Positions 3,066-51,582 of a DNA stretch of 64,000 nucleotides are shown piece by piece. Position 1 is the stretch's first letter, and each line of letters opens with the position of its first letter. This DNA is from a virus: the UHGV virus genome UHGV-0178594, one strand, 5' to 3'. Position numbers and translations under genes: made by a program. The notes under the pieces are model-generated. The model ran no database searches. It was not told the origin of the DNA and saw only the letters and a program-made list of their open reading frames with translations.

Positions 3066-3404
3066 ATGAAACAGGCAACCAGAAAACCGACGACTGTAGG
3101 TGATATCCTGCTGTACGAATACCTGGAGCCGTTAGAGCTTAAGATCAACGAGTTAGCAGAAATACTTCATGTTCATCGTAACACCGTAAGTGCTCTTGTT
3201 AATAACAATCGTAAGCTAACGATGGATATGGCATATCGCCTGGCAAAAGCATTCGATACTTCTGTAGATTTTTGGATTAATCTTCAGACCGCAGTAGACC
3301 TGTGGGAAGTCGAAAATGATATGCGCGTTCAGGAAGAGTTAAGTCGTATCAATACTGCTGAAAAATTTATTTCTCAGCGGAACCTGAATAAAAAAGCAGC
3401 CTGA
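3066..3404 (+). CDS. higA: HigA antitoxin, XRE-type HTH
   Basis: 112 aa; HTH LAEILHVHRNTVSALVNNNRKLTMDMAYRLAKAF; directly downstream of higB; hairpin terminator follows at ~3428-3452. Confidence 0.75.
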   Translation: MKQATRKPTTVGDILLYEYLEPLELKINELAEILHVHRNTVSALVNNNRKLTMDMAYRLAKAFDTSVDFWINLQTAVDLWEVENDMRVQEELSRINTAEKFISQRNLNKKAA

Positions 3405-3460
3405 TATAGTTAAACACATACAAAAAGCCCACTTAACAAGTGGGCTTTCCTTTGGAATTA

Positions 3461-8458: not shown

Positions 8459-8793
8459 GCCCCTTTAATCACGGAGATTTCGTTTCCCGCACGATAGCGG
8501 CGGGGAACGGAACTCTCCATCAGGTCACGAATTACTCCCGCTTCACGCAGTTCCTCTGTCTCCCAGTATCTGTTTGTCACCAGGTCAAGGCTGGCAATGA
8601 CTTTATGCCGGTCATTCGGCATTGCTTCTTTTTCAGCCATTATCATCAGTGAGAACTCTTCATCCAGTAGAATTTGATACCAGACTTTTGACAGTTCCAA
8701 CTCTCTAATGAGGGTGAAGCGCCGCTCAATTGTGGCGGAAGAATAAGTGAAATCAATTTTTTTCGTGACATACATTTTGCTGTGTCCGGTCAC
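8455..8793 (-). CDS. hypothetical protein
   Basis: 112-aa ORF convergent with 8066..8458. Confidence 0.4.
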   Translation of the reverse strand: MTGHSKMYVTKKIDFTYSSATIERRFTLIRELELSKVWYQILLDEEFSLMIMAEKEAMPNDRHKVIASLDLVTNRYWETEELREAGVIRDLMESSVPRRYRAGNEISVIKGA

Positions 8794-8831
8794 TTAGTAG
8801 TTAAAGCCCCGGCATGACCGGGGCAAATCTA

Positions 8832-9758
8832 TTAACTAACAATCCAGTCGGTCGCTGCTACATCTTCTGGCTGTAAATCAATCGCACAGATCTTGCCGTC
8901 GCGAAAGGTGCGCCAGTTTTTCCGTGAGCCTCTTTCGGGCCATACCCAGACACTTTCAGGCCAGGATGCTCGACGGCATACGGTTGCATACCCTGTTTTA
9001 ATCTTCTCTCTGGCGGTATGCAACGACAGGTTTGCCTTTGGACTTTCAGGCACAGGATGGTGAATGGCCTGAAATAGCCCCATCCTGGGATGATACCAGC
9101 GTTTGTTGCGTGGTTCAGCCTCCGACATAACCTGCTTAAAGGCTTTCCGGAAGGGGGCCAGGGCCACAATGGAGCGTCTCGCAAGCAAACCATCGGGAGT
9201 TAAAAACTCATGCGTATCTGTGGGGATCCGGTAAGCGTTGACCAGGTTGCGGCATTTGGCTTCAGTCAGGCCGCATTTCGCCGCTAACTGGCGATAGCCA
9301 ATGTAGCCTTCCGGAATATTGCCTTTCTTTATTTGCTCGACGGTTTCAGCGACTTTGGTCACTTGTGCCGATACTTCGGCTACCTGGGCATTAACGGCGT
9401 TGATCCGGCGTTCATGCTCAAGATGCATTTGCGCCATTTCGGCCAGAATTTCGGCTTTTGATTTTAACGGTCCTCTGGCATTCTCCAGTTCGCGCCAGCG
9501 GTCCACCAGCCGGGCGGTGAATTCGGGAGAGAGCTGCGCGACGACGATAATGCTATCGCGCTTGCCTTGTTCGCCTTCGAAGACGTAATAGCTCGCCGGG
9601 CGGCCTGCAGTGGGCTTTTCCTCAATTTGAGGAAAAGTTATTACGCCCCGTTCCGCCAGGTGTTCAATGGTGCGTTTAACGTTGTCAGGACGCTTACCCA
9701 CCAGCTCCGCGATCTCAATACTGGTCATTGTCGCTTTTTGAGAGATGGACAGATTCAT
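8832..9758 (-). CDS. antirepressor-like protein (Rha/Bro-N-type N-terminus) fused to DUF2829-like C-terminal domain
   Basis: N-terminus MTSIEIAELVGKRPDNVKRTIEHL...; C-terminus ...WVWPE...DWIVS; homologous to 50236..50943 plus 50039..50251. Confidence 0.6.
   Translation of the reverse strand: MNLSISQKATMTSIEIAELVGKRPDNVKRTIEHLAERGVITFPQIEEKPTAGRPASYYVFEGEQGKRDSIIVVAQLSPEFTARLVDRWRELENARGPLKSKAEILAEMAQMHLEHERRINAVNAQVAEVSAQVTKVAETVEQIKKGNIPEGYIGYRQLAAKCGLTEAKCRNLVNAYRIPTDTHEFLTPDGLLARRSIVALAPFRKAFKQVMSEAEPRNKRWYHPRMGLFQAIHHPVPESPKANLSLHTAREKIKTGYATVCRRASWPESVWVWPERGSRKNWRTFRDGKICAIDLQPEDVAATDWIVS
9190..9600. repeat. ~0.4-kb direct repeat (left copy) inside antirepressor gene, ~90% identical to 50390-50760
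   Basis: Long identical runs, e.g. aaaactcatgcgtatctgtggggatccggtaagcgttgaccaggtt and ttcgcgccagcggtccaccagccgggcggtgaattcgggagagagctgcgc. Confidence 0.7.
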
Positions 9759-9973
9759 CAGTGCACCTCCACGCAGTTCATTGGCAGATTCCAGTAATTG
9801 AGGATCTCCATCGCATCAAGAGTGAAGCGAGCAGCAAAAATGCAGGGTTCTTCGGGAAGGTATGAGCGCGCTTCTGCTTCGGTTGCAGCCATGACGCAGA
9901 TATACAGGTGTTTTTGGCAGGAATAGAAACGCCAGATAAATTCAGAATGAGTTGGGGTAGGGATAGTAGCCAT
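9758..9973 (-). CDS. Icd-like small protein (immI-type module)
   Basis: 71 aa, ATGA-coupled to antirepressor gene; paralog of 50943..51167 (EFIWRF...AATE.EARS). Confidence 0.4.
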   Translation of the reverse strand: MATIPTPTHSEFIWRFYSCQKHLYICVMAATEAEARSYLPEEPCIFAARFTLDAMEILNYWNLPMNCVEVH

Positions 9974-10785
9974 ATTGGCAGCCTCCTTTGACTAAGTTAA
10001 GGAGCTACCGCGTGAGGTTCCAATCTCAATGGCGGTAGCACTGACTGGGTTGGAACTACCGGCGTCAAAGGGAACCGGCCTGCCTTTCGGCAGCCCAGCC
10101 AGCACTACCATTGATCTCTGAGCTAAACGCTAAGTATGGCTGTGCGATGGCATGACACAAAAAAAGACGCGTTCGGCGTCTGTGTCGCCTTTGACATTAT
10201 CCGGGGTTCCAATCCCGGCACCCGTTTTTCTAAGGTGCCGTAGAAATATACCCCACGATAATGCCAGGGCGCAACTGTGTGTTTTCTTATGCTTTTCTTT
10301 TCTTCTTTTGGGCTTGCTTGCAGGCGTAGGCCATTGCTTTAGCTTTCACTTCATCCAGCTTTCCGGTGATCACTTCTTTTCCGAGAGTGACAAACCAGTC
10401 ATAGCAACCGCCAGTGATGTTCTGGATTTGAAAGTTGAGGTAGCGAACGGTCATTTTGACACCCCCAGCGCGAGTAAAGAATGCAGATTATCGCGTGAGT
10501 GGCGGACAACGAGTGATGGGAAAAGACAGTAGCTGTTCATAGTGTAGTGACTCCTTGCTTTCGGAGCCGCCATCGACTGTTCCACGGTCTGGTGGCGGCG
10601 CAATAAAGGTTGGAACACCGTGAGTCAACGGGGGCTTTTCAGCCACCTATATTGCACCGCCATTGGTATGGCGGCGGCAATCATACGAAAAACCAAACGG
10701 TTTGTCTCAAAAAGTTGACCGGTGTACCAATCGGTTGTGAATGTACAACGGCGAATCTCACAATTCAACTTAAAATGTTAGAAAA

Positions 10786-11361
10786 TTAATTTATCAATTC
10801 AGTCACCATCTGATACAACGTCATTTCATCAGCATTGTGCCGCCTGAAATCTGCTTTGCCGCCTATTTTTCCATCAGCATGAACAGGAACCAACCAGGGG
10901 TATTGCTCGCGGATCTCTGCTGGCGCTGCGTGTTGATGGTGCCATTTACACAAAGGGAGGACGTATTTATGCGCGTTCTCTGCTGTTCTCCCGAAGATGT
11001 GGTGCAGGGATACCACAGGGCTATGCTGTCCGTGCATATGGCAGGCAATGCAGGGGAGAGCACCGATGGCAGTTTGTATCCGGCGCTCATCTGCTGTGAG
11101 TGTTCTGCCTTTCAGGCCGCGTGACGCGCGAGTTTTTTTGACAGGAGCAGAAGCGGCCTTCTCTTTTCTTCGCTGTTCATATTGCTTCGCTTTTTCAATT
11201 TTCTTTTGCCGATATTCAGGCGATGCGGCTTTTTCTCGCGCACGCTGCTGCTGGCGTTGAGCTTGCTGAAGACGCTTTGCCCTTTGTTCCTCCCGCCATT
11301 TCGGATCAGCCAGTTTTTGCAGGGCTTTTTGTGTCTGTTTCTCCCAATAGCTTTGCTTCAT
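10786..11361 (-). CDS. Ref-like HNH endonuclease (recombination enhancement function)
   Basis: Cys/His cluster LPCIACHMHGQH...LPLCKWHHQH; ORF track begins at TTG 11403, ATG at 11361 preferred; 34-bp palindrome immediately upstream. Confidence 0.55.
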   Translation of the reverse strand: MKQSYWEKQTQKALQKLADPKWREEQRAKRLQQAQRQQQRAREKAASPEYRQKKIEKAKQYEQRRKEKAASAPVKKTRASRGLKGRTLTADERRIQTAIGALPCIACHMHGQHSPVVSLHHIFGRTAENAHKYVLPLCKWHHQHAAPAEIREQYPWLVPVHADGKIGGKADFRRHNADEMTLYQMVTELIN

Positions 11362-11404
11362 AGAAATACCCGGTTTGTCTACATCGCCGCTATGGTTGAT
11401 CAAA

Positions 11405-11438
11405 TGTGTTAGAAAATCAAAATTGATTTTCTAACACA
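11405..11438. promoter_or_regulatory. 34-bp perfect palindrome, bipartite operator candidate (GTTAGAA-N14-TTCTAAC)
   Basis: TGTGTTAGAAAATCAA-AA-TTGATTTTCTAACACA in divergent promoter region between Ref-like gene and rightward early operon. Confidence 0.6.
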
Positions 11439-11633
11439 AAATGAAGATACTTTTTTTCAGACGCTATATCAGGAGGTCATGATGCTTGTCGCAATAAGTG
11501 CAATCCACCAGCAATCCGGTACAGAAATTGGGTTGCTATATGCCCTGTTTTTCACTGTCCTGGCGTTGTTTGAGCTGGGCATTGAACTCTTTGCTCTCAT
11601 CAACTTTTGCGTAACGTTCCTGGGGAAACTTTG

Positions 11634-16324: not shown

Positions 16325-16356
16325 GTGTTAGAATATTGATTTTAATTTTCTAACAT
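16325..16356. promoter_or_regulatory. palindromic operator candidate (GTTAGAA-N14-TTCTAAC)
   Basis: GTGTTAGAATATTGATTTTAATTTTCTAACAT between phosphatase gene and 16398 ORF. Confidence 0.5.
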
Positions 16357-29617: not shown

Positions 29618-29689
29618 AGTACCCTCCGCAATAGGCGAGGGTACTTTACATTAAAATGCACTGTCTAAAAAGATTGTTAGAAAATTAAT

Positions 29690-30718
29690 TTATGAATCCA
29701 TCAGGCGACTATTTGCACCAACGGATGCCCCGCTACGGCGCAAATATCGCATAAGTGTTTCGGGCTTTTTCCATGTGCCTTCCTGCATGATCTCGACCAT
29801 TGACACCTGTTTCTCAGCCATATCAATTGCCGCACCAACACGCGCACTATGGCCTGTCCACGTCCGGTATCTTCCTTTGTTCGGCGTGGCATCTCGTTTG
29901 TTCAGCAACCCCCAGGCATCGCTGAATATTTTCTCCATTGCAGGTGCAGTAAGGGGAGTTGTCGTGATTCTGGCCTTATTACTGCGGTGTATTGGCGGGA
30001 ATAGCACCGCGTCCGGATGTTGACGAAGTCCGGACACCTCCAGCCAGTCGTTCAGTACGGCGGTAGTGCAACGAGAAAGCACCTTATCAAGTCCGGCGGC
30101 GGTCGTGATGGTCTTCGTGTGCGAAATATGCAGCGTTACAGTGTCACCTGTTTGGTCCAGATCTCCGACGCGGATGCGCGAGATTTCTGACATACGCATC
30201 AGGGTATTGTATGCCACGAAGAGAAACGCCCGATTGCGCAGGTCCACCAGCCGCTCGGAACGGGACAGCAATACGTCGAGCAATTTCAGATCATCCCACC
30301 GCAACGGTATAGCCTGGCCTGTTCGCTCGCCTTTTTCCGTTGCCGCTTCGCGCCGGATGCGCCGCATGGCCAGAGACACACTTTTATCGTCCGACAGCGG
30401 CGGGAGGCCACATTGCGAAAGCAGCATGTTAAGCATGGCATAGTGCTTATCAATGGTGGTCGAAGCCAGATCGGCCTCATGCAACTGGAGAAGATACTCG
30501 CGGGCCATTTCCGACGTAATCGGGAACCAGGGGCGCTGGCGCGAGTTACACCACCGCGCCCAGGAATGAAACACCAGACGGAGATCACGAAGTGTATTTG
30601 GGGCATAAGCTCCCTGGTCGTTCATGAACTGCATAAAGTTTTTTGCAGCTTCCTGGTATTCGGTGCCAATATCGCGCAGAAAACCACCAGAACCGCCGGA
30701 GATAACTAGTTCACCCAT
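29690..30718 (-). CDS. Cre-like tyrosine site-specific recombinase
   Basis: Extended similarity to P1 Cre (WFP...YLL.L...SLAMRRIRRE...RNRAFLFVAYNTLMR, SGHSARVGAA.DMA); 342 aa. Confidence 0.8.
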   Translation of the reverse strand: MGELVISGGSGGFLRDIGTEYQEAAKNFMQFMNDQGAYAPNTLRDLRLVFHSWARWCNSRQRPWFPITSEMAREYLLQLHEADLASTTIDKHYAMLNMLLSQCGLPPLSDDKSVSLAMRRIRREAATEKGERTGQAIPLRWDDLKLLDVLLSRSERLVDLRNRAFLFVAYNTLMRMSEISRIRVGDLDQTGDTVTLHISHTKTITTAAGLDKVLSRCTTAVLNDWLEVSGLRQHPDAVLFPPIHRSNKARITTTPLTAPAMEKIFSDAWGLLNKRDATPNKGRYRTWTGHSARVGAAIDMAEKQVSMVEIMQEGTWKKPETLMRYLRRSGASVGANSRLMDS

Positions 30719-30902: not shown

Positions 30903-31098
30903 GAAATCGGAACTTTTTTCCCAAAAAAACACCGACCAGATCACTTCGCAAATCCGTCAGCCATGCGGTAGCCGCTCCTGGTTACATTTTCTAATAGGAA
31001 CAATCAAAAAAAAGCGGTTTTATCCTTTACTCACCTTGTTATTCAGCATAAATTTGTCACAGGACTTTTATGTTAGAAAACTAAATCGAGTAGGAATA

Positions 31099-32136
31099 AT
31101 GAGTAAGAAGTCGATCGAGAATGAGTACAAACGGTTCCTGCAAACCGCTGAACGGTGGAAAGAGCTGGTGGTCGCAAACTCTGTTTTCCATGATACCAGT
31201 TATGTTGGCGAGGAATTTCGCCATGTTGCATTAACACATGATCCGGCTGTATTAGAAGAAGCTGAAAAATGCATAGCCGAATGGAAAGCCTTTGTTGATC
31301 TGTGTCGCAAGGATGATGACAAAGCCTCAAACATTGTTGAGTCGGTTTATTTACCGATCCCATTCATTGTTGAGGATACTAATCAGAGTACGCACATCGT
31401 TATGCAAAGCGCAACCACAACGAGAACATTTACGCGCGAAGACCTGCTGAAAAAATACGATAAAACTATAAAGAAAAGCATGAAAAACAGGATATTTTCA
31501 CAGGTTGTCGGTGCGCTTGAAGAAGAACGCAGATTCTTCGCCGCTGAACGTGAGGGCGAGGTATACCGCGCAAGAAAAGAAGGTTATACCGATGTGGTGA
31601 TTACCACCAATATTGAGGGCAACAATGGACTTTCACGCTTCAGAGTGGGTACGCACGGTGCGCTGATCTTTGCAAAAAAAGCAAACACAGAGATTCCCGT
31701 TGTTAACAACGTTGGTGAGCGCCGCACCCTTACCATTTACACTGGCATTAAACCGCTTCCGTGCGGACTTCTCGGCGAATTTGACCTTTATCGGGTTCGT
31801 GATCTGGAAAAGCAGCAGCCAAGCTACGTCGTGAAGTCATATATCCTGAGAAACATTGATATCCGCAATCAGAGTTTAAAAAACAAATCAGATAAAATGC
31901 TGGCCGAAGCCGATCCAGCCATACACCAGATCGTAAGCCGGAAAATTCAAGAGGCTAAAGATGCAATGGCAAGGCTGGATAAAATGGACCTGGAACTACT
32001 GGAAGTTATGATTGCCTCCGGCGATGACCTGACAGGCATCCGCCTTACTGAAGCCAGGAAAAAATACGGTAAAAGCGTTGAAGAACGCTATGGGTACACA
32101 TTCACACAAACGATGTACGCGGCAAAACTCTGGTAA
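31099..32136 (+). CDS. hypothetical protein; positional analogue of P1 c1 (between pacB and lox)
   Basis: 346-aa ORF convergent with pacB-like gene; GTTAGAA half-site in its leader; no recognisable motif. Confidence 0.4.
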   Translation: MSKKSIENEYKRFLQTAERWKELVVANSVFHDTSYVGEEFRHVALTHDPAVLEEAEKCIAEWKAFVDLCRKDDDKASNIVESVYLPIPFIVEDTNQSTHIVMQSATTTRTFTREDLLKKYDKTIKKSMKNRIFSQVVGALEEERRFFAAEREGEVYRARKEGYTDVVITTNIEGNNGLSRFRVGTHGALIFAKKANTEIPVVNNVGERRTLTIYTGIKPLPCGLLGEFDLYRVRDLEKQQPSYVVKSYILRNIDIRNQSLKNKSDKMLAEADPAIHQIVSRKIQEAKDAMARLDKMDLELLEVMIASGDDLTGIRLTEARKKYGKSVEERYGYTFTQTMYAAKLW

Positions 32137-35511: not shown

Positions 35512-35543
35512 CTATTAGAAAATTAATATCAATTTGCTAACAC
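35512..35543. promoter_or_regulatory. degenerate palindromic operator candidate (ATTAGAA-N14-TGCTAAC)
   Basis: Upstream of Lpa-position gene; right arm abuts stop of 35543 ORF. Confidence 0.4.
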
Positions 35544-36950: not shown

Positions 36951-37026
36951 TGGTGGCCCCTACCGGACTTGAACCGGTGACCGTGCGATTATGAGTCGCC
37001 CGCTCTAACCACTGAGCTAAAGGGCC
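36951..37026 (-). tRNA. tRNA, anticodon CAU (tRNA-Ile2/ileX-like or Met)
   Basis: 76 nt, GGCCCTTTAGCTCAGTGGTTAGAGC...CTCATAA...GGTTCAAGTCC...CCA; close to E. coli tRNA-Ile(LAU). Confidence 0.8.
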
Positions 37027-37455
37027 AGATTACTGTTAATTACGCTTACGCTTTTTGCCAGAACCGCGTAAGGCTTTTGCCGCTTGCTCTACCCCGTATG
37101 CAACCACCAGCAGAAACAATAATGTCCACTCCGGGTTTTTATCGGCAAACGCCCAAAAATCCATCACTTGCAGCCACCTTTTAAGACAAAACGCCATTGC
37201 TGTTAGGTTGCGGTGCCGGGTGCCTCCCGGTGACGTTAACCAGTTAACAATTAACGCCGGATCACTTATGGATTCTCGTTACGCCAGTAAAAAGACCACC
37301 TTTACTGTTTTAACTGTTCCGCGTGCGCTTAGCCGCATTCACCGCAATGGTAAGAGCATTTGGCTGACTGGGCGGCGATGACGCCTGTACGCATTTGGTG
37401 ATCCGGTTCTGCTTCCGGCATTCGCTTAATTAGCCAAATACTCTTAACGTTGCGC

Positions 37456-37542
37456 TGGCGGAGAGTAATGGAATCGAACCATCATCGCTTGCGCAATGGG
37501 ACGGTTTTCAAGACCGCTTGAGCACCATGCTCCCTACTCTCC
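37456..37542 (-). tRNA. type II tRNA, anticodon UGA (Ser candidate), atypical D-arm
   Basis: 87 nt; acceptor GGAGAGT/ACTCTCC, loop CTTGAAA, long variable arm, T-loop TTCGATT, encoded CCA. Confidence 0.5.
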
Positions 37543-37647
37543 AGTGATTGTGATGGTCGGTGCTGAACTCCGACACAGGGTTGTAGCAAGCCCCGCAAAG
37601 CGCGCACTACTGTAGTTGCGGCACATCAGCCTGTGCATTCATCACAA

Positions 37648-37725
37648 CGGTAAGGGTACTTCGTAGGGATTCGAACCCTCTGCCAAGCTCGGCGATCTCC
37701 GACGTCGCAAAATACCCTTACCTGT
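37648..37725 (-). other. tRNA-like fragment / degenerate tRNA
   Basis: Contains GGGTTCGAATCCC T-arm inside an 8-bp closing helix but no canonical D or anticodon arm. Confidence 0.3.
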
Positions 37726-37730
37726 TGTGT

Positions 37731-37806
37731 TGGTGCCGGTTAACGGACTCGAACCGCTGACATCCTGCTTACAAGGCAGGCGCTCTACCAACTGAGCTAA
37801 ACCGGC
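37731..37806 (-). tRNA. tRNA-Thr (anticodon UGU)
   Basis: GCCGGTTTAGCTCAGTTGGTAGAGC...CTTGTAA...GGTTCGAGTCC...AACCGGCACCA. Confidence 0.8.
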
Positions 37807-37810
37807 AATT

Positions 37811-37897
37811 TGGTGGGGAGTGATGGAGTCGAACCATCCGAGTCGCAATGACAGTAGATTTACAGTCTACCCCGCTACCCCTACGGACTAACTCCCC
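37811..37897 (-). tRNA. tRNA-Tyr (anticodon GUA), type II
   Basis: 87 nt; anticodon loop CTGTAAA, long variable arm, T-loop TTCGACT, CCA end. Confidence 0.75.
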
Positions 37898-37902
37898 TAA
37901 AT

Positions 37903-37979
37903 TGGCGATGGTGGGTGGATTCGAACCACCGACCGACAGCTTAGAAGGCTGCTGCTCTATCCTACTGAGCTACACCATC
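37903..37979 (-). tRNA. tRNA-Arg (anticodon UCU)
   Basis: GATGGTGTAGCTCAGTAGGATAGAGC...CTTCTAA...GGTTCGAATCC...CACCATCGCCA. Confidence 0.75.
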
Positions 37980-38464: not shown

Positions 38465-39290
38465 CAAATATCCCACTCGCGGTATTGCCACTTAGGCGTA
38501 TGGTCAACCTGGCAACTCGGTGTCCTCAACGGGGAAGGAATAACCCCGCCATACTTACCGCCGCGCCTGTCGCGGTTATCGCTACGTATCAACATAAAAG
38601 CCGACTGCCTGAGCAAGATTCACTTTCAAAGGCCCGCAGAAAGGAATCCATAGTCGGCTTTTATCTTGAAGCGGCTCTCTCTCCGCCCGTCACCGTCCTA
38701 TCCCGGTTGTCGCGTTTGCCACGCCAGCCGTAACGAGGTTTAAAGTCTTTTCACGTTTTCATCACTCGACTGCCGTCTATGGCTGTTCGTTGCAGCGGGG
38801 GTGCCTCCCCCTGGGAATATCCCCGGCCTTACCCCATTCTTTCAAGACACAATGCAAGGCCACATCCGCATAGGTGCATTACCGCAACGTTAAGGAGACT
38901 CAGAGTCAGCAAAATAAGAGGAAAACCCAACTCTGCGCCTCCTTAACGTTGAGGATGTGCACTGATGATGACCCGATGCAGCCTGGCCCACTTAACATAC
39001 TCACTGCCAGATCATCATCAATGAACACCATAAAAAGACCTTCCGTGGCTCAAGTCACTGTCGTTTACTCCGTAAAATGCTCTCGCTGAAACCACTTTAC
39101 GCACTAAACCTGCCGGGCATGTATTTGCACGGTGCCGGAGCTTTCCCTTACCTTAAAATTTACTTTCTAACACTTAAAATTGTTTGATGCTGGTGGGGAA
39201 AGACAATGAAGTGACTATCAAACCCGCAAGCGACATGGGAAGCTCCCCACCAGCACGAAAAATTCTATGTTAAGTTAACTACATAATCAA

Positions 39291-39323
39291 TATGTTAGAA
39301 AAACAATTTTAATTTTCTAACAC
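39291..39323. promoter_or_regulatory. palindromic operator candidate (GTTAGAA-N14-TTCTAAC)
   Basis: ATGTTAGAAAAACAATTTTAATTTTCTAACACA, 4 bp from stop of 39325 ORF. Confidence 0.5.
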
Positions 39324-40533: not shown

Positions 40534-40605
40534 GTTTGTTCCCTTTCTTGAAATTAGTTTTCTAACATATTTTATTAGTATGCAATTTCAATAAAAAGAC
40601 TCAGG

Positions 40606-42532: not shown

Positions 42533-45500
42533 TTAGGCCGCATCGGCGATTATTTTACGCAGTTCATCTAACGAGTAACGCGTAGATACCATCCATGCAG
42601 GACGGTCAAAGTTCACATCAGCAACCGGGTTTGCTTCAAAATTCCAGAAACGCCCGCCAATCTTCTTAATCGCGTCTTTGGCGTTCCGTATTGTCGAGGA
42701 ACCAGGTTGGTCGGCAATGAGATAAACCGCACCGACGTCCTCGCTGACACTCCACCAGCGCCCGCGAACACGCGCCTTAGCGCGAATCGGCTTATCATTA
42801 ACCACAATGATATAGTCATCATTCGCCGCTTCATCAGCTCTTGCTTCAGCCACTGCCGCCTGCTCTTCTCTTTTGCTTTCAGCCTGTTCAAGCCTTTCCG
42901 CGATCTCTGATTCGGTGGCCCCGCCGTTTTTCAGCGATACATAGTCTTGCCACGTTGCTGATTTGAGCGCATCCGGCAACTCATTCACATAGTCACCGTC
43001 TTTCAACTCACGGGCGCGGCGGGTAGCCATTTCTACCAGGCGATTAACAGAAACAGCATCAGCAAAATCGTCCTTACTAATGTGTTTTTCATCAAATGCA
43101 TTGATGACAGCCCCCACCTTAATCCACTGTGATGCCGGTGATTCCAGGGGGTTATCAGCCTGGACTATGGCGAGTTTCGCTCCATCTACCCCATTATTCG
43201 CCAACTGTTCCAATGCCGCCCATCCATCTGCATCACTGAGTGATTTATATTGCTCAAACAATGCATCGCGCCAGGCCACCAGCGCAGAACGTGTTTTTTC
43301 GATCTTCGTCTTAATTTTGGCGATCTTGACCTGATTAAACATCCGTTCAATATCATCGATATTGCTAAAGGCTTTCATTCTGCCCTTGAATAAACGGTAT
43401 GCCAGCACGGTCCTCCAGAATGATTCCAGACCTTCTCCGGACGGTTTGCGGAACAAGCTAAGAATATCTTCAGAAGTGACTTTATTAAGCGAACGACCTG
43501 ACAGACCACGCCCAGCCATCCAGTTTTCGAACTCCTGGACAACATCATCCATCGTTGCCTGTGCGCCCCATGCCTGCATTCCCTGGATGTAATCATACCC
43601 ATACAATGCCTGGAGGAATCCCTCGCCGTCCACGATATTCAGCGGGTTATCACTGGCTTGTATTTTTGCCACTTCACGCTTCAGCGCCTCATCGTTGCCA
43701 TCTGGATATATCCATCGTTCAGGTGCTATATCCGATGCTCGCCCGATTTTTTGGCCTATCACGCCATCATAGGCCGATGACAGCGCGATCTGACCATCAT
43801 CTGTGCGATATGCCCAGTATTTAATAGCTGACCCACCGCCCCATGCATTACCAGGTTTACCAGCAATAACATTCATTACCCCATTGCGAATAGCATCATA
43901 GAACTGATCGCGAGTAAGTATTGTTGATAGCTGGTGGCACTGAACACCACGCGCAGCCGTTGCGCGCGATTCAGCTACCCCCTCTTCAAAAGTTACCGCT
44001 TCAATCACAGAGTCAAACGGCAATGTAACGATTGACCCCGGTGATCGAGCGTAACGACTTGCTCTATCCAGCCAGGCGATACGGCAGAGGTATTGTGCTT
44101 TTTCACCGTCAATTTTTTCCACCCGGACAATCGCTGTTGTTTCGCGATCATCAATGACTGCACGGTAATAACTACCTTTATGCAACAGGATATTCTTGTC
44201 AGTGCGCATATATTCCTGTGGGTTCTGAATAACATCGATACTGATATCCAGCACACCAGACTTAATAGCGCGCTCCACATCACCACGAGAGCGTTTCATT
44301 ATGGTATCCGCGTCTTTTGCCCTGGTGATCGCAAACCGCAGCACCCGCGCACGTTTTCTGTAGCTACTCAACTGCTCAAGCGCGAATTTTTGCCCATTCC
44401 TGTTCGTACCCGCTTTTATCAGGTCGTCAAGATTGCGCTGGTAATACTCTATCTGTTCCATCGCGCTTTTCAGTTCTGTCTCCATCATGCCGATATCTTT
44501 TCCGGCGGCGTTTGCCGCTTTCAGGTAGATATCGAGAGCATTGTTGGCCTCGCGCTGTGCTTTCAGTTTCAGACGTTCTTCACGCTCTTGCGCCTGGCGA
44601 GCCATGATTGCGCGGCGTTCTTCCGGGTTTGCCGCCAGCATAATAGCGCGTTCATCAGCATCATCCGCATCACCATTGGCGATCTCTGACATGTCGGAGG
44701 TCATCACCATCTTGATCCAGTCTTTCTTACGTTTCAGCGTATCCAGACGGAAGTCGTCGAATGTGCCTTTGCCACAATAGTAGTGAACATTGACCTTCTC
44801 TTGCGGTGAACCTACGCGCGCACCGCGCCCATTTCGTTGGTCGATACTGGCTGGTGTCCAGGGTAGTGTCAGGTGGTGGATATCGGTTGTCCCGATATGC
44901 AGGTTAATACCTACTTCAGCCTTCTTGTTACAGATAATGATGCGCGTGCGCCCTTCGTTATAGTCGGCGGCAATGCCTTCCATACCCTCAAGGCCAGCAT
45001 CATTTTTAGCTGAGAGATAATCCTCATATTGGGCAAGTTTGCTGTAGTAGGTTTCCCATGCCCCTTCTTTGTATTCACCGTTTTTATTCGGAGTAGGTTC
45101 AGTCGGCTTATTCACCTTCTTCAGCTTGATGCCGCCAGCCTGGCTAACGGTCGTCGCATTGATAATGCCTATCTCCTGCTCCGGCATTTGCAGTGCACTG
45201 GCGATAATACGGCGCAGCTTCTGGTGCTGGGCTTTTTCATCAATGAAGACAATTTGTTTACCGTTCTTCAGACCTTCACGAAGGTTTTCGATCAGCGCGG
45301 CATACTTCGGCGGGATGGGGTGTGATACCTGCTGCAGATCAATCCCGGCGGCAGCAATGGCCTTCAGTATTTCAGCTTCCAGTTCAATGCTGGCACGTAT
45401 TTCAACATGCGCCGGATGTTCACTAAAGGTGGTCTTCACTACCTTACTGGTGCGCGTACTAACCAGCCCACCAGCGCCGTCTTCTTCGGCCTCGTCTGCA

Positions 45501-48500
45501 TCATCTGCCACTTTACCGCCAGCTACTTTTGGCAGGGCATCAGCAATAGCTTTTACCTTGTCTGCAAGCTCAACGGGGAACTGGAATGTAATCGCACTGG
45601 CATACAGATCCGGATCTATAGCAACCTTATCCATGTCGCGGATGATGGAGAAGATGAAATCATCCGGTTTTTCGTTTGTGATATGCCCGTTTTCATCAAC
45701 CGTCAGCGCATCTTTACTACTTAACTCCTGTGCACGCTTACGAAGCTCTTCATAAGCAGCCTCCTGCTCCCCTGTCATCGGGATCTGCAAGGTATTCTCG
45801 ACAATATCAGGGATTTTAACCGTCGCCCCGACGTCCGCAGCAGTCTTCAGAGTAGTCCAGCGATGGAAAATACCACGCAGGCCATCAAGGTTCTGGAAGC
45901 CAACCAGCCCCTGCTTCTCTTCCACTTCCCCGGAAATTTTCTGGACCTGAACTGTGGCTGTTTTACCAAACACACGAACGAAATCATCAGGCGTAATGAT
46001 GCCCATGCGCATCCACTCTTCCTGCGGAATGACAGTAGACAGCATGTTGAAGGCATCAATCGGACTGTTCACCAGCGGTGTTGCCGTCAGCATGACTACA
46101 CCACGCCCGTTGTTGCGTTTCATCATGTACGCAGCTTTTACAGCCATGTCGCGGGCCATCTTGGATACTGCCGGGTTAGGCAAATATGCCAGTTGTCCCG
46201 CTTCACGCCCGGCATTAAAGGAGTTGCGGTAGTTATGCCCCTCGTCGGCAATCACGCTATCGAAGTTCATATCCTCAAAGTACGGGATATTCTGCTTCTT
46301 CGTTGTACCGGTATTCGCGGCCTGATCCTTAATCTTGTTCTTCTTCTGCGCATCACGGTGTTTACCAGACGCCAGGTCAAGACGCCCCATTTCCACAGCA
46401 TTAAAGACAGCTTGCTGTGAGTTCTCCTCGATGGTTTTTTCTCGTAGCGGGATAGACGCGAATTGTTCTTTTGTCATGATGACCGTTCGCCAATTTGACG
46501 ACGGGATCATGTTCATGCGCTGAACGATAACGGCGCTGGCGGACTCTTTCACAACATTTCTGGTAAGAGGCTGCCCGTTACTGTCGAGGCGGGGTTCGCC
46601 ATTTTCATCAAGCACCGGCGCGGTCAGAATATTGCCGTCTTCATCACGAACTTCATCCAGACCGATAAACATCATATTTGCGAAGGCATCAGCACTGTAG
46701 AAGCTCTGTGCCTCGTGATACCAGTTCTGATAAACCGCCTTCGGAACAACAATACACGTGCGTTTAGTGCGACCTGTTTCGAAGTTATACGCCTCAAGCG
46801 CAAGCGCGGTCGTGGTTTTACCCAGCCCGGTACCAAATCCCATGATGCCGCGCCCATCTTCTGACAAGCGACGAACTTCTTCATTCTGATAAGTCAGAGG
46901 AATGCGCTTTCCACTAATCCCTTCCAGGCCAAGCGGTGCGTTAGAGTGCGTGAACGGAATGAAGCCATTGAATGCGTCGTTATAGTCACGGGCTATCTGA
47001 TCCGCCTGCGGGTGGGTGCGTAACCAGTCGTTAAAGCTAACTTCCAGTTGAGCAATTTTATCCAAGTACTCGTTAGCGTTCTGCCCACGCGGTTTAACAC
47101 CGTTCAGGTAGTTTTCTAACTGGTTCAGGAAGCCGTCTTTATTGTTGGCCTTCTTGAACTCATTCCCGTTTTTGCCGTTTACGGTTCGTAGTTGATAGCC
47201 GGTAAATACCCCGTCCTTACCTTCGTAATCGTCCGGAGATACCAGAATGCCATCGACGACCTTCAGATCAGGTTCAGTGTACTTAAACTCGTCATAGCCC
47301 TGCTCTGCCAGGAACTCTTTTATCAAGCGGCGATCCAGCCAGCGGGCGTTCAGATTAACGGTGACTTTATTTAGTGGCGTGAAAATGCGTTTCTCTTCGA
47401 TTTTCGCCAACTGACGCTCAAAGTTCGCTTTCTGCTCACCTGTTGACGCATCACGCCAACCCACCAGCAATGTTGTTTTGGTTGCAATATCGCCGCTGGT
47501 GGCGCGGTCCATCGGCAGCAGGCAGCCATACCCATCAATAGCGATATCATCAAATTTCGCCAGGTATTCAAGGGCCGCGTCGTCGTCCTCTGGCAGTTCA
47601 CCAGCAAACGCCTCACGAAAGTCGCCCAGCGTTATAGGATTAAGGGCTACATCACTGAAAAGATGTGCTATCACTTGTTCAGGACGTGTAAAGTCAATAC
47701 CGGCAGCACCATCCGTTACATCAAGTCGCCCTGCCAGAAGGTCAGAAGTGGAACCATCCTGTTTCACATTGCCAGTGAACGTCATCCAGTTTTTAGCGCC
47801 AGCTTCAGCAAGCCCATTCAGCTTAATCGCGTGCGGTGGTCCATACTTCGCAACTTCTGCTGCCGCCAGGCGGGATGCATCTGCCAGTTTGTCATCAACG
47901 TTCACCCCCAGGTTACGCAAATCAAGTGCCTTGTTGATCAACTGCCCTATCAACGCACCGCGCATAACGCGCTCCCTGTCTTTTTCTCGCTGTTTGCCAG
48001 CAAAGCGAATCATTGCTGCCACTTCATCACTGACAACCGATGGATAGTCGGACGCGATCGCCGATATCTGGTCCCATGACAAAGCCAGAATCCCGTTTGT
48101 TGACTGGAACGCGATCTGCAGATCGCCAAACGTCGAAACACCATATCGACTTACATCAAGCGCGGAGGATTTGGTTGTCGTGTCCTTAACCCATTTCAGA
48201 CCATCAAACTCATGCCAGATACCGCCTACAAGGCGTTTATCGCCCACTTTCGCGCCCTGCCATGCCTGGGTAGTTACTCCGAGCAAATCCCAATTAATAC
48301 GGCTTTCAAAGCGGCGTGATAACGCGGTTTTCATCGACTCATTGGATACACGACCGTCCTTTTTCACCACCAGGGTATTGCGGAAGCTGGTGCGTTCCAT
48401 GTCGCCGTAAACAAATCGCTTCCCTTCGGTTGTAAACCATTTCCCTTTGAGGAAGGTATCCCAAAGGACGTTTGCCGATTTGAGCGTTGCATCATCCGTG

Positions 48501-49384
48501 TCGGGGATCATCTCCAGGAAGGTTTCCGGGTGTTTACGCAATACCCATACGTCCACCACCGTATCTGTACCGGATTCGCTGAACGTACCAGAAGGCATAC
48601 GATGCGCGCCCAAAAATTCCGCTTTACGGCTGACTTTATCGCGCAATTTTTTGTATTTCGTACCATCGGTCATGCCATTCGGCACCACCAATACAATTAG
48701 TCCACCAGGCTTAACCTTGTCGATTGTGCGCAGCACAAAGTAATTGCCAACGTTCTTCTCGTTTGCATATGCCGGATCAAGCCCGGCGACACCGGAACGC
48801 CCTTCACCAAACGGTACGTTACCAACAGCGTGATCATACATTGCGTCTTTCGCCGCCAGCGCCTCAAACGCCCCGATATTCACATCGTCTTCCGGGTGCA
48901 AAAGCTGGTTTATTCGACCGGAAATCGGAGACAGTTCGGCGCTGGTCATTATCATGCCCTGCCGTTTTGTCTCCTGGAAAATACCTGTGCCCGCTGATGG
49001 TTCCAGTACGTGCCCGCCATCAATACCGTAGTCAGCAAACAGATCCCATATACCTTCAGCCATAAACTGTGGCGTGTAGTATTCGTATTGGCTGCCCTCA
49101 CCATCTGTCAGGCCGCCTTCACCGGTATACCCGGCAAGAATCTGACGTTGTGCGTCAGTTAATTTCGCCCCATCGAAGCCGGGCGGAAGGGAATTAAGAA
49201 GATTTACTGCGGCGTTGTTTGCTGCCCGGCGTGTTTTCTGAATACTGACGCCATCGACTTTCTTAACGCCAAAGGTCACTACAGCTCGCGGTTTATGCAA
49301 CCGACTAACAATTTCAATCAGCGCCCCAATGCTGGTGGCCTGGCTAATTGAATCAATTATTTTGTCCAAAGGAAGCCCCCTCAA
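42533..49384 (-). CDS. DarB-like anti-restriction protein: N6-adenine methyltransferase fused to SF2 helicase
   Basis: 2283 aa (P1 DarB is of similar size as I recall); MTase motifs EPSAGTGIF and GNVPFG; helicase motifs GTGLGKTT, DEGHNYRN, LTATPLVNSP. Confidence 0.75.
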   Translation of the reverse strand: MRGLPLDKIIDSISQATSIGALIEIVSRLHKPRAVVTFGVKKVDGVSIQKTRRAANNAAVNLLNSLPPGFDGAKLTDAQRQILAGYTGEGGLTDGEGSQYEYYTPQFMAEGIWDLFADYGIDGGHVLEPSAGTGIFQETKRQGMIMTSAELSPISGRINQLLHPEDDVNIGAFEALAAKDAMYDHAVGNVPFGEGRSGVAGLDPAYANEKNVGNYFVLRTIDKVKPGGLIVLVVPNGMTDGTKYKKLRDKVSRKAEFLGAHRMPSGTFSESGTDTVVDVWVLRKHPETFLEMIPDTDDATLKSANVLWDTFLKGKWFTTEGKRFVYGDMERTSFRNTLVVKKDGRVSNESMKTALSRRFESRINWDLLGVTTQAWQGAKVGDKRLVGGIWHEFDGLKWVKDTTTKSSALDVSRYGVSTFGDLQIAFQSTNGILALSWDQISAIASDYPSVVSDEVAAMIRFAGKQREKDRERVMRGALIGQLINKALDLRNLGVNVDDKLADASRLAAAEVAKYGPPHAIKLNGLAEAGAKNWMTFTGNVKQDGSTSDLLAGRLDVTDGAAGIDFTRPEQVIAHLFSDVALNPITLGDFREAFAGELPEDDDAALEYLAKFDDIAIDGYGCLLPMDRATSGDIATKTTLLVGWRDASTGEQKANFERQLAKIEEKRIFTPLNKVTVNLNARWLDRRLIKEFLAEQGYDEFKYTEPDLKVVDGILVSPDDYEGKDGVFTGYQLRTVNGKNGNEFKKANNKDGFLNQLENYLNGVKPRGQNANEYLDKIAQLEVSFNDWLRTHPQADQIARDYNDAFNGFIPFTHSNAPLGLEGISGKRIPLTYQNEEVRRLSEDGRGIMGFGTGLGKTTTALALEAYNFETGRTKRTCIVVPKAVYQNWYHEAQSFYSADAFANMMFIGLDEVRDEDGNILTAPVLDENGEPRLDSNGQPLTRNVVKESASAVIVQRMNMIPSSNWRTVIMTKEQFASIPLREKTIEENSQQAVFNAVEMGRLDLASGKHRDAQKKNKIKDQAANTGTTKKQNIPYFEDMNFDSVIADEGHNYRNSFNAGREAGQLAYLPNPAVSKMARDMAVKAAYMMKRNNGRGVVMLTATPLVNSPIDAFNMLSTVIPQEEWMRMGIITPDDFVRVFGKTATVQVQKISGEVEEKQGLVGFQNLDGLRGIFHRWTTLKTAADVGATVKIPDIVENTLQIPMTGEQEAAYEELRKRAQELSSKDALTVDENGHITNEKPDDFIFSIIRDMDKVAIDPDLYASAITFQFPVELADKVKAIADALPKVAGGKVADDADEAEEDGAGGLVSTRTSKVVKTTFSEHPAHVEIRASIELEAEILKAIAAAGIDLQQVSHPIPPKYAALIENLREGLKNGKQIVFIDEKAQHQKLRRIIASALQMPEQEIGIINATTVSQAGGIKLKKVNKPTEPTPNKNGEYKEGAWETYYSKLAQYEDYLSAKNDAGLEGMEGIAADYNEGRTRIIICNKKAEVGINLHIGTTDIHHLTLPWTPASIDQRNGRGARVGSPQEKVNVHYYCGKGTFDDFRLDTLKRKKDWIKMVMTSDMSEIANGDADDADERAIMLAANPEERRAIMARQAQEREERLKLKAQREANNALDIYLKAANAAGKDIGMMETELKSAMEQIEYYQRNLDDLIKAGTNRNGQKFALEQLSSYRKRARVLRFAITRAKDADTIMKRSRGDVERAIKSGVLDISIDVIQNPQEYMRTDKNILLHKGSYYRAVIDDRETTAIVRVEKIDGEKAQYLCRIAWLDRASRYARSPGSIVTLPFDSVIEAVTFEEGVAESRATAARGVQCHQLSTILTRDQFYDAIRNGVMNVIAGKPGNAWGGGSAIKYWAYRTDDGQIALSSAYDGVIGQKIGRASDIAPERWIYPDGNDEALKREVAKIQASDNPLNIVDGEGFLQALYGYDYIQGMQAWGAQATMDDVVQEFENWMAGRGLSGRSLNKVTSEDILSLFRKPSGEGLESFWRTVLAYRLFKGRMKAFSNIDDIERMFNQVKIAKIKTKIEKTRSALVAWRDALFEQYKSLSDADGWAALEQLANNGVDGAKLAIVQADNPLESPASQWIKVGAVINAFDEKHISKDDFADAVSVNRLVEMATRRARELKDGDYVNELPDALKSATWQDYVSLKNGGATESEIAERLEQAESKREEQAAVAEARADEAANDDYIIVVNDKPIRAKARVRGRWWSVSEDVGAVYLIADQPGSSTIRNAKDAIKKIGGRFWNFEANPVADVNFDRPAWMVSTRYSLDELRKIIADAA

Positions 49385-50007: not shown

Positions 50008-50030
50008 AAAAGCCCCGGCCAAGCCGGGGC
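50005..50030 (-). terminator. rho-independent terminator (minus-strand reading)
   Basis: gccccggc-caa-gccggggc hairpin next to A7 on plus strand. Confidence 0.6.
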
Positions 50031-50038
50031 ATCACACT

Positions 50039-50251
50039 TCAAGTTACGATCCAATCATTACCGACTGCATCCGCCGTCGATAAATCGACTTCCCGGATCT
50101 GGTATCCATTAATACAAAACCATCCAGTAGTAGAGCTATTATCAGGCCAGACCCATACACCAACACTCCATGCTTTACGGCGGCACACTTCAGCCTGTCC
50201 TTCCCTGATTTTTTTTACCGCCTGCATGATGTCCATCACTCGCCTCCCCAA
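50039..50251 (-). CDS. DUF2829-like small protein (separate ORF here, fused to antirepressor in left copy)
   Basis: ...EVCRRKAWSVGVWVWPD...DWIVT; 16-nt overlap with upstream antirepressor ORF. Confidence 0.45.
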   Translation of the reverse strand: MGRRVMDIMQAVKKIREGQAEVCRRKAWSVGVWVWPDNSSTTGWFCINGYQIREVDLSTADAVGNDWIVT

Positions 50252-50943
50252 CCGATTACCTGGAATTGCCCCATCCTTGGGTGATACCAGCGTTTTCCTC
50301 GGTGTTCAGCCTCCGACATCATCAGGGTAAAGGCATTCATGAAGGGAGATAAGGCCACAATAGTACGACGCGACAATACCCCCTCTGGCGTCAAAAACTC
50401 ATGCGTATCTGTGGGGATCCGGTAAGCGTTGACCAGGTTACGGCATTTGGCTTCAGTCAGGCCGCATTTCGCCGCCAGTTGGCGGTAGCCAATGTAGCCT
50501 TCTGGTATGTTGCCTTTCTTGATCTGCTCGACGGTTTCAGCGACCTGGCTAACCTTTGACTCAACAGCATGAAGCCGCTTTTGCTGCTGAACTGCATTCG
50601 CAGCCATTGCAGCGATCATCTCTATTTCGGTCAACGGCTGGCGTACTTGTTCTTCCAGTTCGCGCCAGCGGTCCACCAGCCGGGCGGTGAATTCGGGAGA
50701 GAGCTGCGCAACGACAATAATGCTGTCTCGTTTGCCTTGCTCGCCTTCGAAGACGTAAGCCTCAACGCCACGACGCAATCCTAAGTTATTGATTTTTTCG
50801 AAAACAGCCATTGGCGGTTTTCGGATAATGCTTCGAGCAACCATACGCTCAATACTACGTTTAACGTCAGAGTGTTGACTTCCCACCAGCTCCGCAATCT
50901 CAATGCTGGTCATTGATAGTTTTTCGAGAATGCAGATATCCAT
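50236..50943 (-). CDS. antirepressor-like protein (Rha/Bro-N-type)
   Basis: Paralog of 8832..9758 N-terminal 230 aa; ~90% identical DNA stretches. Confidence 0.6.
   Translation of the reverse strand: MDICILEKLSMTSIEIAELVGSQHSDVKRSIERMVARSIIRKPPMAVFEKINNLGLRRGVEAYVFEGEQGKRDSIIVVAQLSPEFTARLVDRWRELEEQVRQPLTEIEMIAAMAANAVQQQKRLHAVESKVSQVAETVEQIKKGNIPEGYIGYRQLAAKCGLTEAKCRNLVNAYRIPTDTHEFLTPEGVLSRRTIVALSPFMNAFTLMMSEAEHRGKRWYHPRMGQFQVIGWGGE
50390..50760. repeat. ~0.4-kb direct repeat (right copy) inside antirepressor gene
   Basis: See left copy; same orientation, ~41 kb apart. Confidence 0.7.
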
Positions 50944-51167
50944 CAGTGAGCCTCCGCAATGCCGGGATTGGTAATATTGCGATACCAGGGATTAGTGTTT
51001 GGTTGTGGGGAAGTAGAGAAACGACCAGTGAGAACGCCATACTGATCAGGGATCAGAGAACGGGCTTCTTTTTCAGTTGCGGCAATTGCGAAGTGATCAC
51101 AATGTTTTTGCAGGGAGTGGAAACGCCAGATGAATTCTGGACGTGAGCAATGATTGGCATTAACCAT
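50943..51167 (-). CDS. Icd-like small protein
   Basis: Paralog of 9758..9973; ATGA-coupled to antirepressor. Confidence 0.4.
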   Translation of the reverse strand: MVNANHCSRPEFIWRFHSLQKHCDHFAIAATEKEARSLIPDQYGVLTGRFSTSPQPNTNPWYRNITNPGIAEAH

Positions 51168-51494
51168 AGTTACGGCCTCGTAAGTTGATAAACAACCTGC
51201 GACCCGCTGTCAAACAGGTGGCAGGACGTGACAGGGTTGACAGACTGGCACTTACGAAACCAGCAGGCCGAAGCCTCCCCATCACGCCCCACCATAATTC
51301 GGGCGTAACGTGGTTTTACGGACACAAAAATACCGCAATATCGGAAATGTGCGGTTGTCCGCGTAAGTATTCAGGCTGTCAAACCTGGTCGCAGAATTTG
51401 CTACGACGGCATGAATATAAGCCTGAACATTAGAAAGATCAACAGAATTTTTATCAAATGCTGTTTTTTAGTGACAATGTAAATCATACATTCT

Positions 51495-51526
51495 TGATTA
51501 GAAACATCAATTTAATTTTCTAACAT
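51495..51526. promoter_or_regulatory. palindromic operator candidate (ATTAGAA-N14-TTCTAAC)
   Basis: Between RepL-like gene and icd-ant module. Confidence 0.5.
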
Positions 51527-51582
51527 ACATTTTCGAGCGATGAAATTCCCGCCGCACGGTTATTGTACAGTCAATCGCAACA

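Follow-up and report, generated by a model that had tools for sequence, protein, structure and literature searches.

The viral genome UHGV-0178594, of which a stretch of 64,000 nucleotides (nt; the window, by which we mean this whole stretch) is considered here, encodes two operons in which an icd-like gene is followed by an antirepressor gene, each lying behind a leader (9974-10785 on the left and 51168-51480 on the right). These loci raise the question of whether the two leaders are the seat of antisense control by a c4-like RNA, as in the immI region of phage P1, and whether the two copies on one element differ in specificity; both had been proposed in an initial annotation made from the letters of the sequence. 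We found that both modules are very probably immI-type switches, in which a c4 antisense RNA silences the icd-antirepressor pair. The right module is orthologous to immI of P1 and differs from it in the antirepressor and in the b code, while the left one belongs to the isrK-C4 class that is common in Stx, phiP27-type and Gifsy prophages. The finding is a known system correctly recognised in a new carrier: the c4/icd/antirepressor switch is textbook P1 biology and its RNAs are curated Rfam families. A third c4-like unit upstream of the left module and the combinatorial reassortment of the a and b pairing codes may be undescribed.

Two icd-antirepressor operons in a D6-like plasmid prophage

The window derives from a D6-like plasmid prophage, a relative of Escherichia phage D6 (~91% identity), which is itself a P1-like plasmid prophage. 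The surroundings of the left operon (8700-11500) are 91% identical to D6 with 90% of the length covered, and those of the right operon (50000-52600) are 92% identical over the full length. The leader features of both modules are all on the minus strand, and the syntenic loci of D6 are orf82/83 and orf18/19 (the D6-like plasmid pYU39_89 was also used for comparison). At both of these loci the GenBank record of D6 lists one gene as ‘inhibition of cell division (icd)’ and another as ‘putative anti-repressor’, and at neither does it list an RNA. Since a second c4/icd region in D6-like plasmids has already been published, the presence of two modules is not new. The P1-like phage RCS47 has two modules as well, a P1-type c4-icd (~52.7-53.1 kb) and, between pacB and c1, one of the isrK-C4-icd-ant arrangement, and the plasmids NZ_AP028855.1 and NZ_CP027443.1 appear in the hit lists of both the left and the right module.

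The pairing of icd with an antirepressor that had been read from the sequence is borne out by profile searches: both icd-like open reading frames (ORFs) belong to phrog_1426 and both of the larger ORFs combine a Rha domain (PF09669) with a match to phrog_63 ‘anti-repressor Ant’. On the left, an icd-like gene of 71 amino acids (aa; 9758..9973, with its AUG at 9973; phrog_1426, E 4e-41), 45% identical to the right copy, is followed by an antirepressor of 308 aa (8832..9758; phrog_63, E 6e-62) with the Rha domain at its N-terminus and a match to phrog_7385 in its C-terminal ~60 aa. On the right, a 74-aa icd (50943..51167), which is 59% identical to P1 Icd (E 3e-25), is followed by a Rha-type antirepressor of 235 aa (50236..50943). 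In both operons the icd stop overlaps the antirepressor start (UGAUG).

C4-family RNAs and their targets in the two leaders

The whole window was scanned against Rfam at the gathering thresholds (45 bits for C4, 50 for isrK and 46.7 for c4-a1b1). C4 (RF01695) matches both leaders far above its threshold and target elements of the isrK and c4-a1b1 families are likewise recovered above theirs, which upholds the proposal of c4-like antisense control at both loci. The left c4 antisense RNA (10028-10115) scores 77.1 bits (E 2.4e-13) and the right one (51214-51299) 69.6 bits; a third, diverged c4-like RNA is described below. The minimum-free-energy (MFE) and centroid folds of all three recover the C4 architecture, with a long closing stem, two hairpins and an exposed b' loop and 3' a' stretch, at fold z-scores of -4.5 to -5.3 (-5.0 for the left and -4.5 for the right RNA). 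All three end in an (R)CCA-like sequence (CCACC or GCCA), a feature relevant to processing by RNase P.

In the left c4, b' (CCUUUGAC, 10064-10071) is the loop of hairpin 2 and a' (GUUCCAA, 10050-10056) is single-stranded. Downstream of it lie the target sites a2 (UUGGAAC, 10017-10023) and b2 (GUCAAAGG, 9985-9992), the latter overlapping the Shine-Dalgarno (SD) sequence of icd (AAGGAGG, 9982-9988). Upstream of it, a1 (UUGGAAC, 10206-10212) and b1 (GUCAAAGG, 10188-10195) are embedded in an isrK-type RNA (10160-10238; Rfam RF01394), which scores 61.3 bits as isrK against 22.4 as c4-a1b1 and contains an intrinsic terminator (10165-10181 plus a U run). The putative promoter of this RNA (TTGCGC-18-TATATT, 10245..10274) has a predicted start at ~10238, the first base of the isrK match, and the homologous position in the Stx phage F039 reads TTGACT...TATATT.

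The right leader has the same order as the immI region of P1 and P7: promoter, a1, b1, c4 (with b' and a'), a2, b2/SD, icd and overlapping ant. Its c4 carries b' (CGUAAGU, 51250-51256) and a' (CUGUCAA, 51237-51243); a2 (UUGACAG, 51207-51213) and b2 (ACUUACG, 51179-51185), which abuts the SD sequence (GAGG, 51176-51179), follow downstream. The upstream sites a1 (UUGACAG, 51376-51382) and b1 (ACUUACG, 51362-51368) are found at a c4-a1b1 element (51368-51420; 55.2 bits), which scores 45.5 bits as isrK, under the threshold of that family, and in which the terminator scan found no terminator. A promoter scan gave two candidates: a proximal one (TTGATC-17-TATATT, 51414..51442), which aligns to the annotated P1 promoter and is the positional homologue of P1c4 (P51b), and a distal one (TTGATG-16-TATGAT, 51510..51483), overlapped by an inverted pair of an operator-like motif (51496-51525; see below). 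This arrangement parallels Op51/P51a/P51b of P1, the operator role in the window being putative.

The right module is ~87% identical in DNA to P1 c4 and the start of icd, and its c4 is almost base-for-base that of P1 except for the b' loop. The leader aligns base-for-base with those of P1 and P7; where it differs, it does so mainly in b', b1 and b2, by changes that compensate each other: b' and its target read CGUAAGU/ACUUACG in the window, CACUAAC/GUUAGUG in P1 and CACAAUC/GAUUGUG in P7. Thus, the a specificity (UUGACAG/CUGUCAA) is identical to that of P1 but the b specificity differs, CGUAAGU being new with respect to P1 and P7 and common to D6. A repL-like lytic replication gene is adjacent in both elements, upstream of c4 in the window and downstream of ant-kilA in P1. 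The antirepressor likewise sets the module apart from P1 immI, as it is a Rha-domain protein that is not homologous to Ant1/Ant2.

The short motifs singled out in the initial annotation map one-to-one to a', a1 and a2 of the P1 GenBank record. Five of their six positions are exact (GGTTCCAA at 10016-10023, TTGGAAC at 10050-10056, GCTGTCAAAC at 51206-51215 and 51375-51384, and TTGACAG at 51237-51243). The sixth, a second TTGGAAC placed at 10599-10605, is wrong by 11 nt: the letters there read CGCAATA and the motif lies at 10610-10616, where it has the same sense as a', falls inside the third c4-like fold and is therefore no target site. The a1 target, another GGTTCCAA (10205-10212), had been overlooked, as had the whole b set, including the element on the icd SD sequence, which by analogy is the main repressive contact.

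A 39-aa ORF (9992-10111, minus strand) lies wholly over the left c4; it matches Pfam Phage_ASH at 32 bits (cutoff 26), and for relatives RefSeq lists it under the name ‘ash family protein’. The AUG that opens it belongs to the AUGG conserved at the 5' end of the C4 model, and probably a conserved RNA gene has been called as a protein here. The equivalent ORF over the c4-like region of the Gifsy-1 prophage, orf45, has been reported as translated (PMC4825925).

Compensatory variation and specificity of the pairing codes

Relatives of the left module were assembled from D6-like plasmids, 33 viral contigs anchored on the neighbouring ORF, the second module of RCS47 and one Stx2 phage, giving 37 loci. 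In every case a1 equals a2 and both are the complement of a', and b1 is equal or close to b2, which is the complement of b'. Three-way compensated sets of a and b are seen in P1, P7, D6, RCS47, Stx phage F039, the contigs L005 and L074 and 30 further loci. The isrK-type modules display four a types and four b types, which reassort independently. The type of the window, a GGAAC with b GUCAAAGG, is found in 15 loci; the same a is combined with GCAAAAGG in nine loci and with CCACUAAAG in L074. The a type GAGAC occurs with GCAAAAGG in three loci (the D6 type) and with GUCAAAGG in RCS47, GGUCU occurs with GUCAAAGG in three loci, and Stx F039 combines UAGGAC with AAUCAAGG. For two a and two b types all four combinations occur, and the module is occasionally lost. 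Between the window and D6 the right c4 code is identical, whereas the left code differs in both a' (GUUCCAA in the window, GUCUCAA in D6) and b' (CCUUUGAC and CCUUUUGC, respectively).

The two copies in the window were surmised to have different specificities, and this is indeed the case for both recognition loops, a' and b'. Duplex energies were computed for the exposed loop nucleotides with a shuffled-loop null. Cognate pairs reach -20.0 kcal/mol on the left and -18.9 on the right, comparable to P1 (-19.5), P7 (-20.5) and the left module of D6 (-20.1), whereas the left/right cross pairs yield -9.6 and -7.0 kcal/mol, resulting in a diagonal matrix. The nulls lie at -11.3 +/- 2.5 (left) and -10.4 +/- 2.4 kcal/mol (right), and at most 2 of 1000 shuffled loops equal the cognate pairing with the downstream (a2/b2) targets; overall, the background spans -7 to -12 kcal/mol. 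A duplex scan by sliding window, in which stem bases were included, proved noisy and was discarded. The further description of the two circuits as heteroimmune is a prediction on superinfection behaviour and goes beyond what a sequence can prove.

In one lineage, represented by L006 (NZ_CP069886.1, 2080-2300) and L019 (1730-1950), recombination of a1 with a2 has excised b1, the terminator and c4. The same lineage has ATC in place of the icd ATG and a deletion that starts in the middle of icd and takes in the antirepressor. This fits the idea that an antirepressor without its guard cannot be tolerated, as a single event to which no statistic attaches.

A probable third c4-like unit upstream of the left module

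Both leaders had been taken to be long and untranslated. This holds for the right one; on the left, 9974-10785 contains a conserved 55-aa ORF, a 29-aa leader ORF and three RNA elements, and is two stacked units rather than one untranslated leader. The upstream unit features the third c4-like RNA, here termed c4L2 (10588..10667), which matches Rfam C4 at 42.3 bits, below the gathering score of 45 (E 2e-6 in a local scan; fold z-score -5.3). Its b' loop (UGACUC, 10622-10627) and a' stretch (GUUCCA, 10611-10616) have putative targets in b2* (GAGUCA, 10548-10553), which overlaps the SD sequence (AAGGAG, 10551-10556) of the 29-aa ORF, and a2* (UGGAAC, 10579-10584), which begins six bases after the 3' CCACC of c4L2. 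The stop of the 29-aa ORF (10451..10540) overlaps the start of the next ORF (ATGA), which encodes the 55-aa protein and is the cargo of the unit (10287..10454; phrog_7786, E 9e-42). In the relatives L014 and L015 the indels in the 29-aa ORF are in frame (29 vs 31 aa) and the ATGA junction is kept. A putative promoter (TTGAAT-17-TACATT, 10740..10768) was recognised by eye and is below the scan threshold, its hexamer regions being kept in divergent relatives; the promoter scan offers an alternative (GAGACA-17-TATGAT, 10708..10680).

The 55-aa protein is almost confined to D6-like elements and shows no similarity to P1 Coi. Its homologues, which fall into 16 protein clusters on long carrier contigs of 48-94 kb, form a narrow family with little diversity, which therefore affords no decisive covariation test for c4L2. 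All D6-like relatives examined that carry c4L2 have it at 38-42 bits, and when viral contigs were scanned by pattern for c4L2 scaffolds of other specificity, only the same D6-like contigs came up. In the window the a' of c4L2 is the same as that of the main left c4, and the cross energies amount to -14 to -16 kcal/mol; an obligatory interaction of the two RNAs is unlikely because the main a code varies in relatives and that of c4L2 does not. We consider c4L2 a probable, if unproven, member of the c4 family. We found no mention of a third c4-like element in the searchable literature, the D6 genome paper lying outside that search.

In one contig (L016, IMGVR_UViG_2908543018_000007, 1133-1668) the upstream unit is found by itself, as a c4-like RNA, a 61-aa ORF and the 55-aa ORF with no isrK-c4-icd-ant module after it; the unit can therefore stand alone. 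The 61-aa ORF, which takes the place of the 29-aa ORF, was entertained as an Icd remnant; it shares only a weak phrog_1743 match with the left Icd and no direct similarity, and this identity was not established. In two Escherichia coli assemblies (L075 and L076, 2672-4361; GCA_021450845.1 and GCA_028669155.1) an IS605-family element, with TnpB/OrfB and a Y1 transposase, directly follows the 55-aa ORF; isrK and the main C4 were not detected in L075.

Repressor, operator-like motif and antirepressors

An operator-like motif, AATTAATTTTCTAACA, has 17 matches in the window against 0.86 expected; it is asymmetric and often occurs in overlapping inverted pairs. It is present at both leader heads, with a perfect copy at the left one (10776..10791, minus strand), and just upstream of a homologue of the prophage repressor gene c1 (31036..32136, plus strand; tblastn with P1 C1, E 1e-5; 80.5% DNA identity to the annotated c1 of D6). 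The c1 product is presumed to be the target of the antirepressors and to bind this motif, a putative C1-type repressor site. The dispersal of the motif resembles that of the C1 operators of P1, mono- and bivalent, which are likewise scattered, but its sequence is different from theirs. Sites include 10776-10791, 11407-11436, 16326-16355, 29675-29690, 31071-31086, 35513-35542, 39157-39322, 40552-40567, 51510-51525 and 52715-52730. A dense cluster at 39-41.6 kb was considered as an immC region and ruled out, as it sits among morphogenesis genes.

The two antirepressors are paralogues that are 65% identical, with ~60 consecutive identical residues within the near-identical C-terminal half of their shared region; at this run the DNA of the two genes (9290-9450 and 50400-50560, minus strand) is closely similar. 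The pattern suggests a recent gene conversion between the two modules, and both proteins probably act on the same repressor. The phrog_7385 domain is fused to the C-terminus of the left antirepressor (residues 247-307; 8832-9014) and forms a separate 70-aa ORF after the right one (50039..50251; E 5e-47). L074, a distant relative, has nothing but a small phrog_7385-type protein (~83 aa, at ~3154-3407 of that contig) after icd, and no Rha-type antirepressor. A DUF2829/Tad2-like fold, guessed for the 70-aa ORF and the left C-terminus, received no Pfam support at E < 0.01.

Proposed mechanism and alternative explanations

The c4 RNA of P1 is a stable RNA of ~77 nt, which is cut from the leader by RNase P and represses in trans; its mechanism was reportedly established by Citron and Schuster in 1990 and in later work from the Schuster laboratory. 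The P1 GenBank record marks the elements a1, b1, c4, a2 and b2 and notes ‘repression of icd ant translation’ for them. The c4 processed from the immI leader pairs with a2 and b2 and blocks the translation of icd, on which that of ant depends (PMC8201110). From family membership, structure, complementarity, compensatory evolution, gene order and coupling we infer a comparable course in the window, with regard to RNA processing, repression, polarity, the decoy role, operator binding and the function of the third unit alike. Both operons would begin with a putative C1-type operator. The leader transcript would hold a c4 RNA of ~77-88 nt with its long closing stem and two hairpins, of which the b' loop of hairpin 2 would pair with b2 on or against the icd SD sequence and the single-stranded a' with a2 just 3' of c4, so as to block the translation of icd as in P1. 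With it, the synthesis of the antirepressor would be lost via translational coupling (and, in P1, Rho-dependent polarity); the same coupling logic as in P1 should apply because of the overlap of both icd stops with the antirepressor starts. The upstream a1 and b1 would serve as competing or decoy sites. On the left, the isrK-type RNA with its own promoter and terminator might, by analogy with IsrK of Gifsy-1, be released in short form and lift the repression in trans, its a1/b1 titrating c4 and opening the switch. Each c4 would control its own operon and incoming relatives of the same code only. The third unit may follow the same plan, with the c4L2 loops matching the SD region of the 29-aa ORF that is coupled to the 55-aa ORF.

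Several points weigh against this reading. MFE cofolding of the full c4 RNAs with the target leaders gave the same result for cognate and non-cognate pairs, i.e., no discrimination, because loop-loop contacts cannot be represented in it; only the loop-restricted energies discriminate, and for these the loops and targets were defined after the alignment had been seen. The count of the left 8-mer GGTTCCAA is by itself at chance level, with 37 of 100 shuffles reaching three. The right antirepressor has no similarity to P1 Ant1 (BLASTP E 0.21), which leaves the target of the antirepressors a presumption. Finally, the c4 RNAs and the repression by them are read from sequence alone.

That the motifs are chance repeats in intergenic DNA of mixed AT and GC content, without any RNA function, is nevertheless wildly improbable. 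GGTTCCAA by itself would fit this account (3 observed vs 2.15 expected), while GCTGTCAAAC occurs twice against 0.17 expected, with 1 of 100 shuffles reaching two. The significance of the modules comes instead from the covariance-model matches (E 1e-11 to 1e-13), in four independent families or elements, and from the three-way compensatory changes across dozens of loci; moreover, the c4 of P1, to which the right module is homologous, has been defined by experiment. It is also conceivable, though we think it unlikely, that the two modules are redundant double locks by which the same C1-type repressor is inactivated, the codes differing through separate acquisition rather than selection for two immunities. 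The similarity of the antirepressors with their identical run, the shared operator-like motif at both operons, and the distinct ancestries of the modules (P1-type on the right, isrK-type as in Stx phages on the left) agree with such a history. The left code, however, varies among close D6-like elements with a and b reassorting, which is the pattern expected under diversifying selection on specificity, and it is established that the heteroimmunity of P1 and P7 is classically set by exactly these elements.

A further question is how far the left module departs from the P1 plan. It shares with the IsrK/STnc1160-orf45-anrP locus of Gifsy-1 and with the isrK-C4 loci of Stx and phiP27-type phages an isrK RNA with a terminator directly upstream of C4 and an antirepressor operon; the same isrK-C4 pair is annotated in the Stx2 phage F039, and in Gifsy-1, too, an upstream ORF is coupled to the antirepressor. 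There, the short IsrK RNA activates in trans the translation of an otherwise inactive read-through orf45-anrP mRNA, a stable processed RNA, STnc1160, is located just downstream of it, and IsrK has been likened to seqA of the satellite phage P4 (PMC4825925). Relatives of P4 CI and seqA reportedly come up in searches with the C4 and isrK profiles (PMC10111431); by description, P4 CI with seqA/seqC belongs to the same RNA clan, and its processed leader RNA pairs with repeated sites on both sides. The left module could thus be an activator switch of the Gifsy-1 type or a termination immunity of the P4 CI/seqA type, in which the c4 region would act mostly in cis, within an inactive mRNA fold opened by the short isrK RNA. 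The clear preference of the upstream element for the isrK over the c4-a1b1 model and its intrinsic terminator speak for such an arrangement, which on the whole we regard as rather improbable. P4 CI brings about premature transcription termination of replication genes and no occlusion of the ribosome-binding site of an icd-antirepressor operon, whereas in the window b2 lies directly on the icd SD sequence and the a2/b2 layout is P1-like. Further, the window has, like P1, a separate icd between c4 and the antirepressor, with the 39-aa ORF over c4 ending before icd, whereas orf45 of Gifsy-1 overlaps the c4-like region itself. Activation in trans by the short RNA is known from Gifsy-1 only (PMC4825925) and is carried over to the window by analogy. 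The mechanisms are not mutually exclusive in any case, in that titration of c4 by an RNA bearing a1/b1 is compatible with both.

As regards c4L2, there is an appreciable, though less than even, chance that it is the decaying relic of an old c4-icd module, which regulates nothing and has been retained by linkage. Against a functional third unit stand its score below the Rfam threshold, the short complementarities (6+6 nt), the lack of significant covariation (with seven distinct sequences, 133 of 500 shuffles reach the observed score) and its absence from the divergent relative L074, in which the promoter runs directly into the 55-aa ORF; in addition, its upstream a1/b1-like sites have one central mismatch each. 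A remnant, on the other hand, would not be expected to show 86-90% conservation where its flanks show 53-76% in divergent relatives, nor a stem that substitutions keep or improve (U.U to C-G or U.G). Moreover, a2* and b2* are at the canonical positions and invariant in divergent relatives while their surroundings vary; the cognate loop-only duplex (-18.2 kcal/mol, against a shuffled-loop null of -9.3 +/- 2.2, reached by 1 in 1000) is as strong as in bona fide modules; and c4L2 persists in elements that have lost the main module (L006, L016 and L075). If c4L2 is functional, the left locus might be a three-tier RNA-immunity array, comprising c4L2 gating the leader-peptide-coupled 55-aa protein, an isrK-type decoy, and the main c4-icd-antirepressor switch, which receives read-through from the upstream unit. 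Together with the right module there would be three orthogonal locks, with codes of 7-8 nt that reassort as a barcode-like compatibility code for superinfection and induction among co-circulating phage-plasmids. We put this forward tentatively, as a scheme that is somewhat more likely to be wrong than right.

Implications and genomic neighbourhood

In E. coli and Salmonella, resistance genes are commonly carried by phage-plasmids of the D6-like and P1-like kinds. For D6 and most of the plasmids related to it, public annotation shows no RNA at these loci and instead a spurious-looking ‘ash family protein’ over c4. The present results confirm a reading made blind from the raw sequence. The RNA codes predict which elements exclude or induce one another; for instance, with respect to D6 the element in the window is predicted to be homoimmune through its right module and heteroimmune through its left one. 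A small, directly testable model of how the specificities of RNA-based immunity diversify is offered by the probable third unit together with the freely reassorting a and b codes.

Elsewhere in the window, four tRNA genes are clustered at 36954-37979 (minus strand; Rfam tRNA 44-75 bits), and such clusters are typical of P1/D6-type phage-plasmids. In the list of ORFs, a single ORF of 2283 aa with methyltransferase-like and helicase-like motifs occupies 42533-49384 (minus strand), and is reminiscent of DarB of P1.

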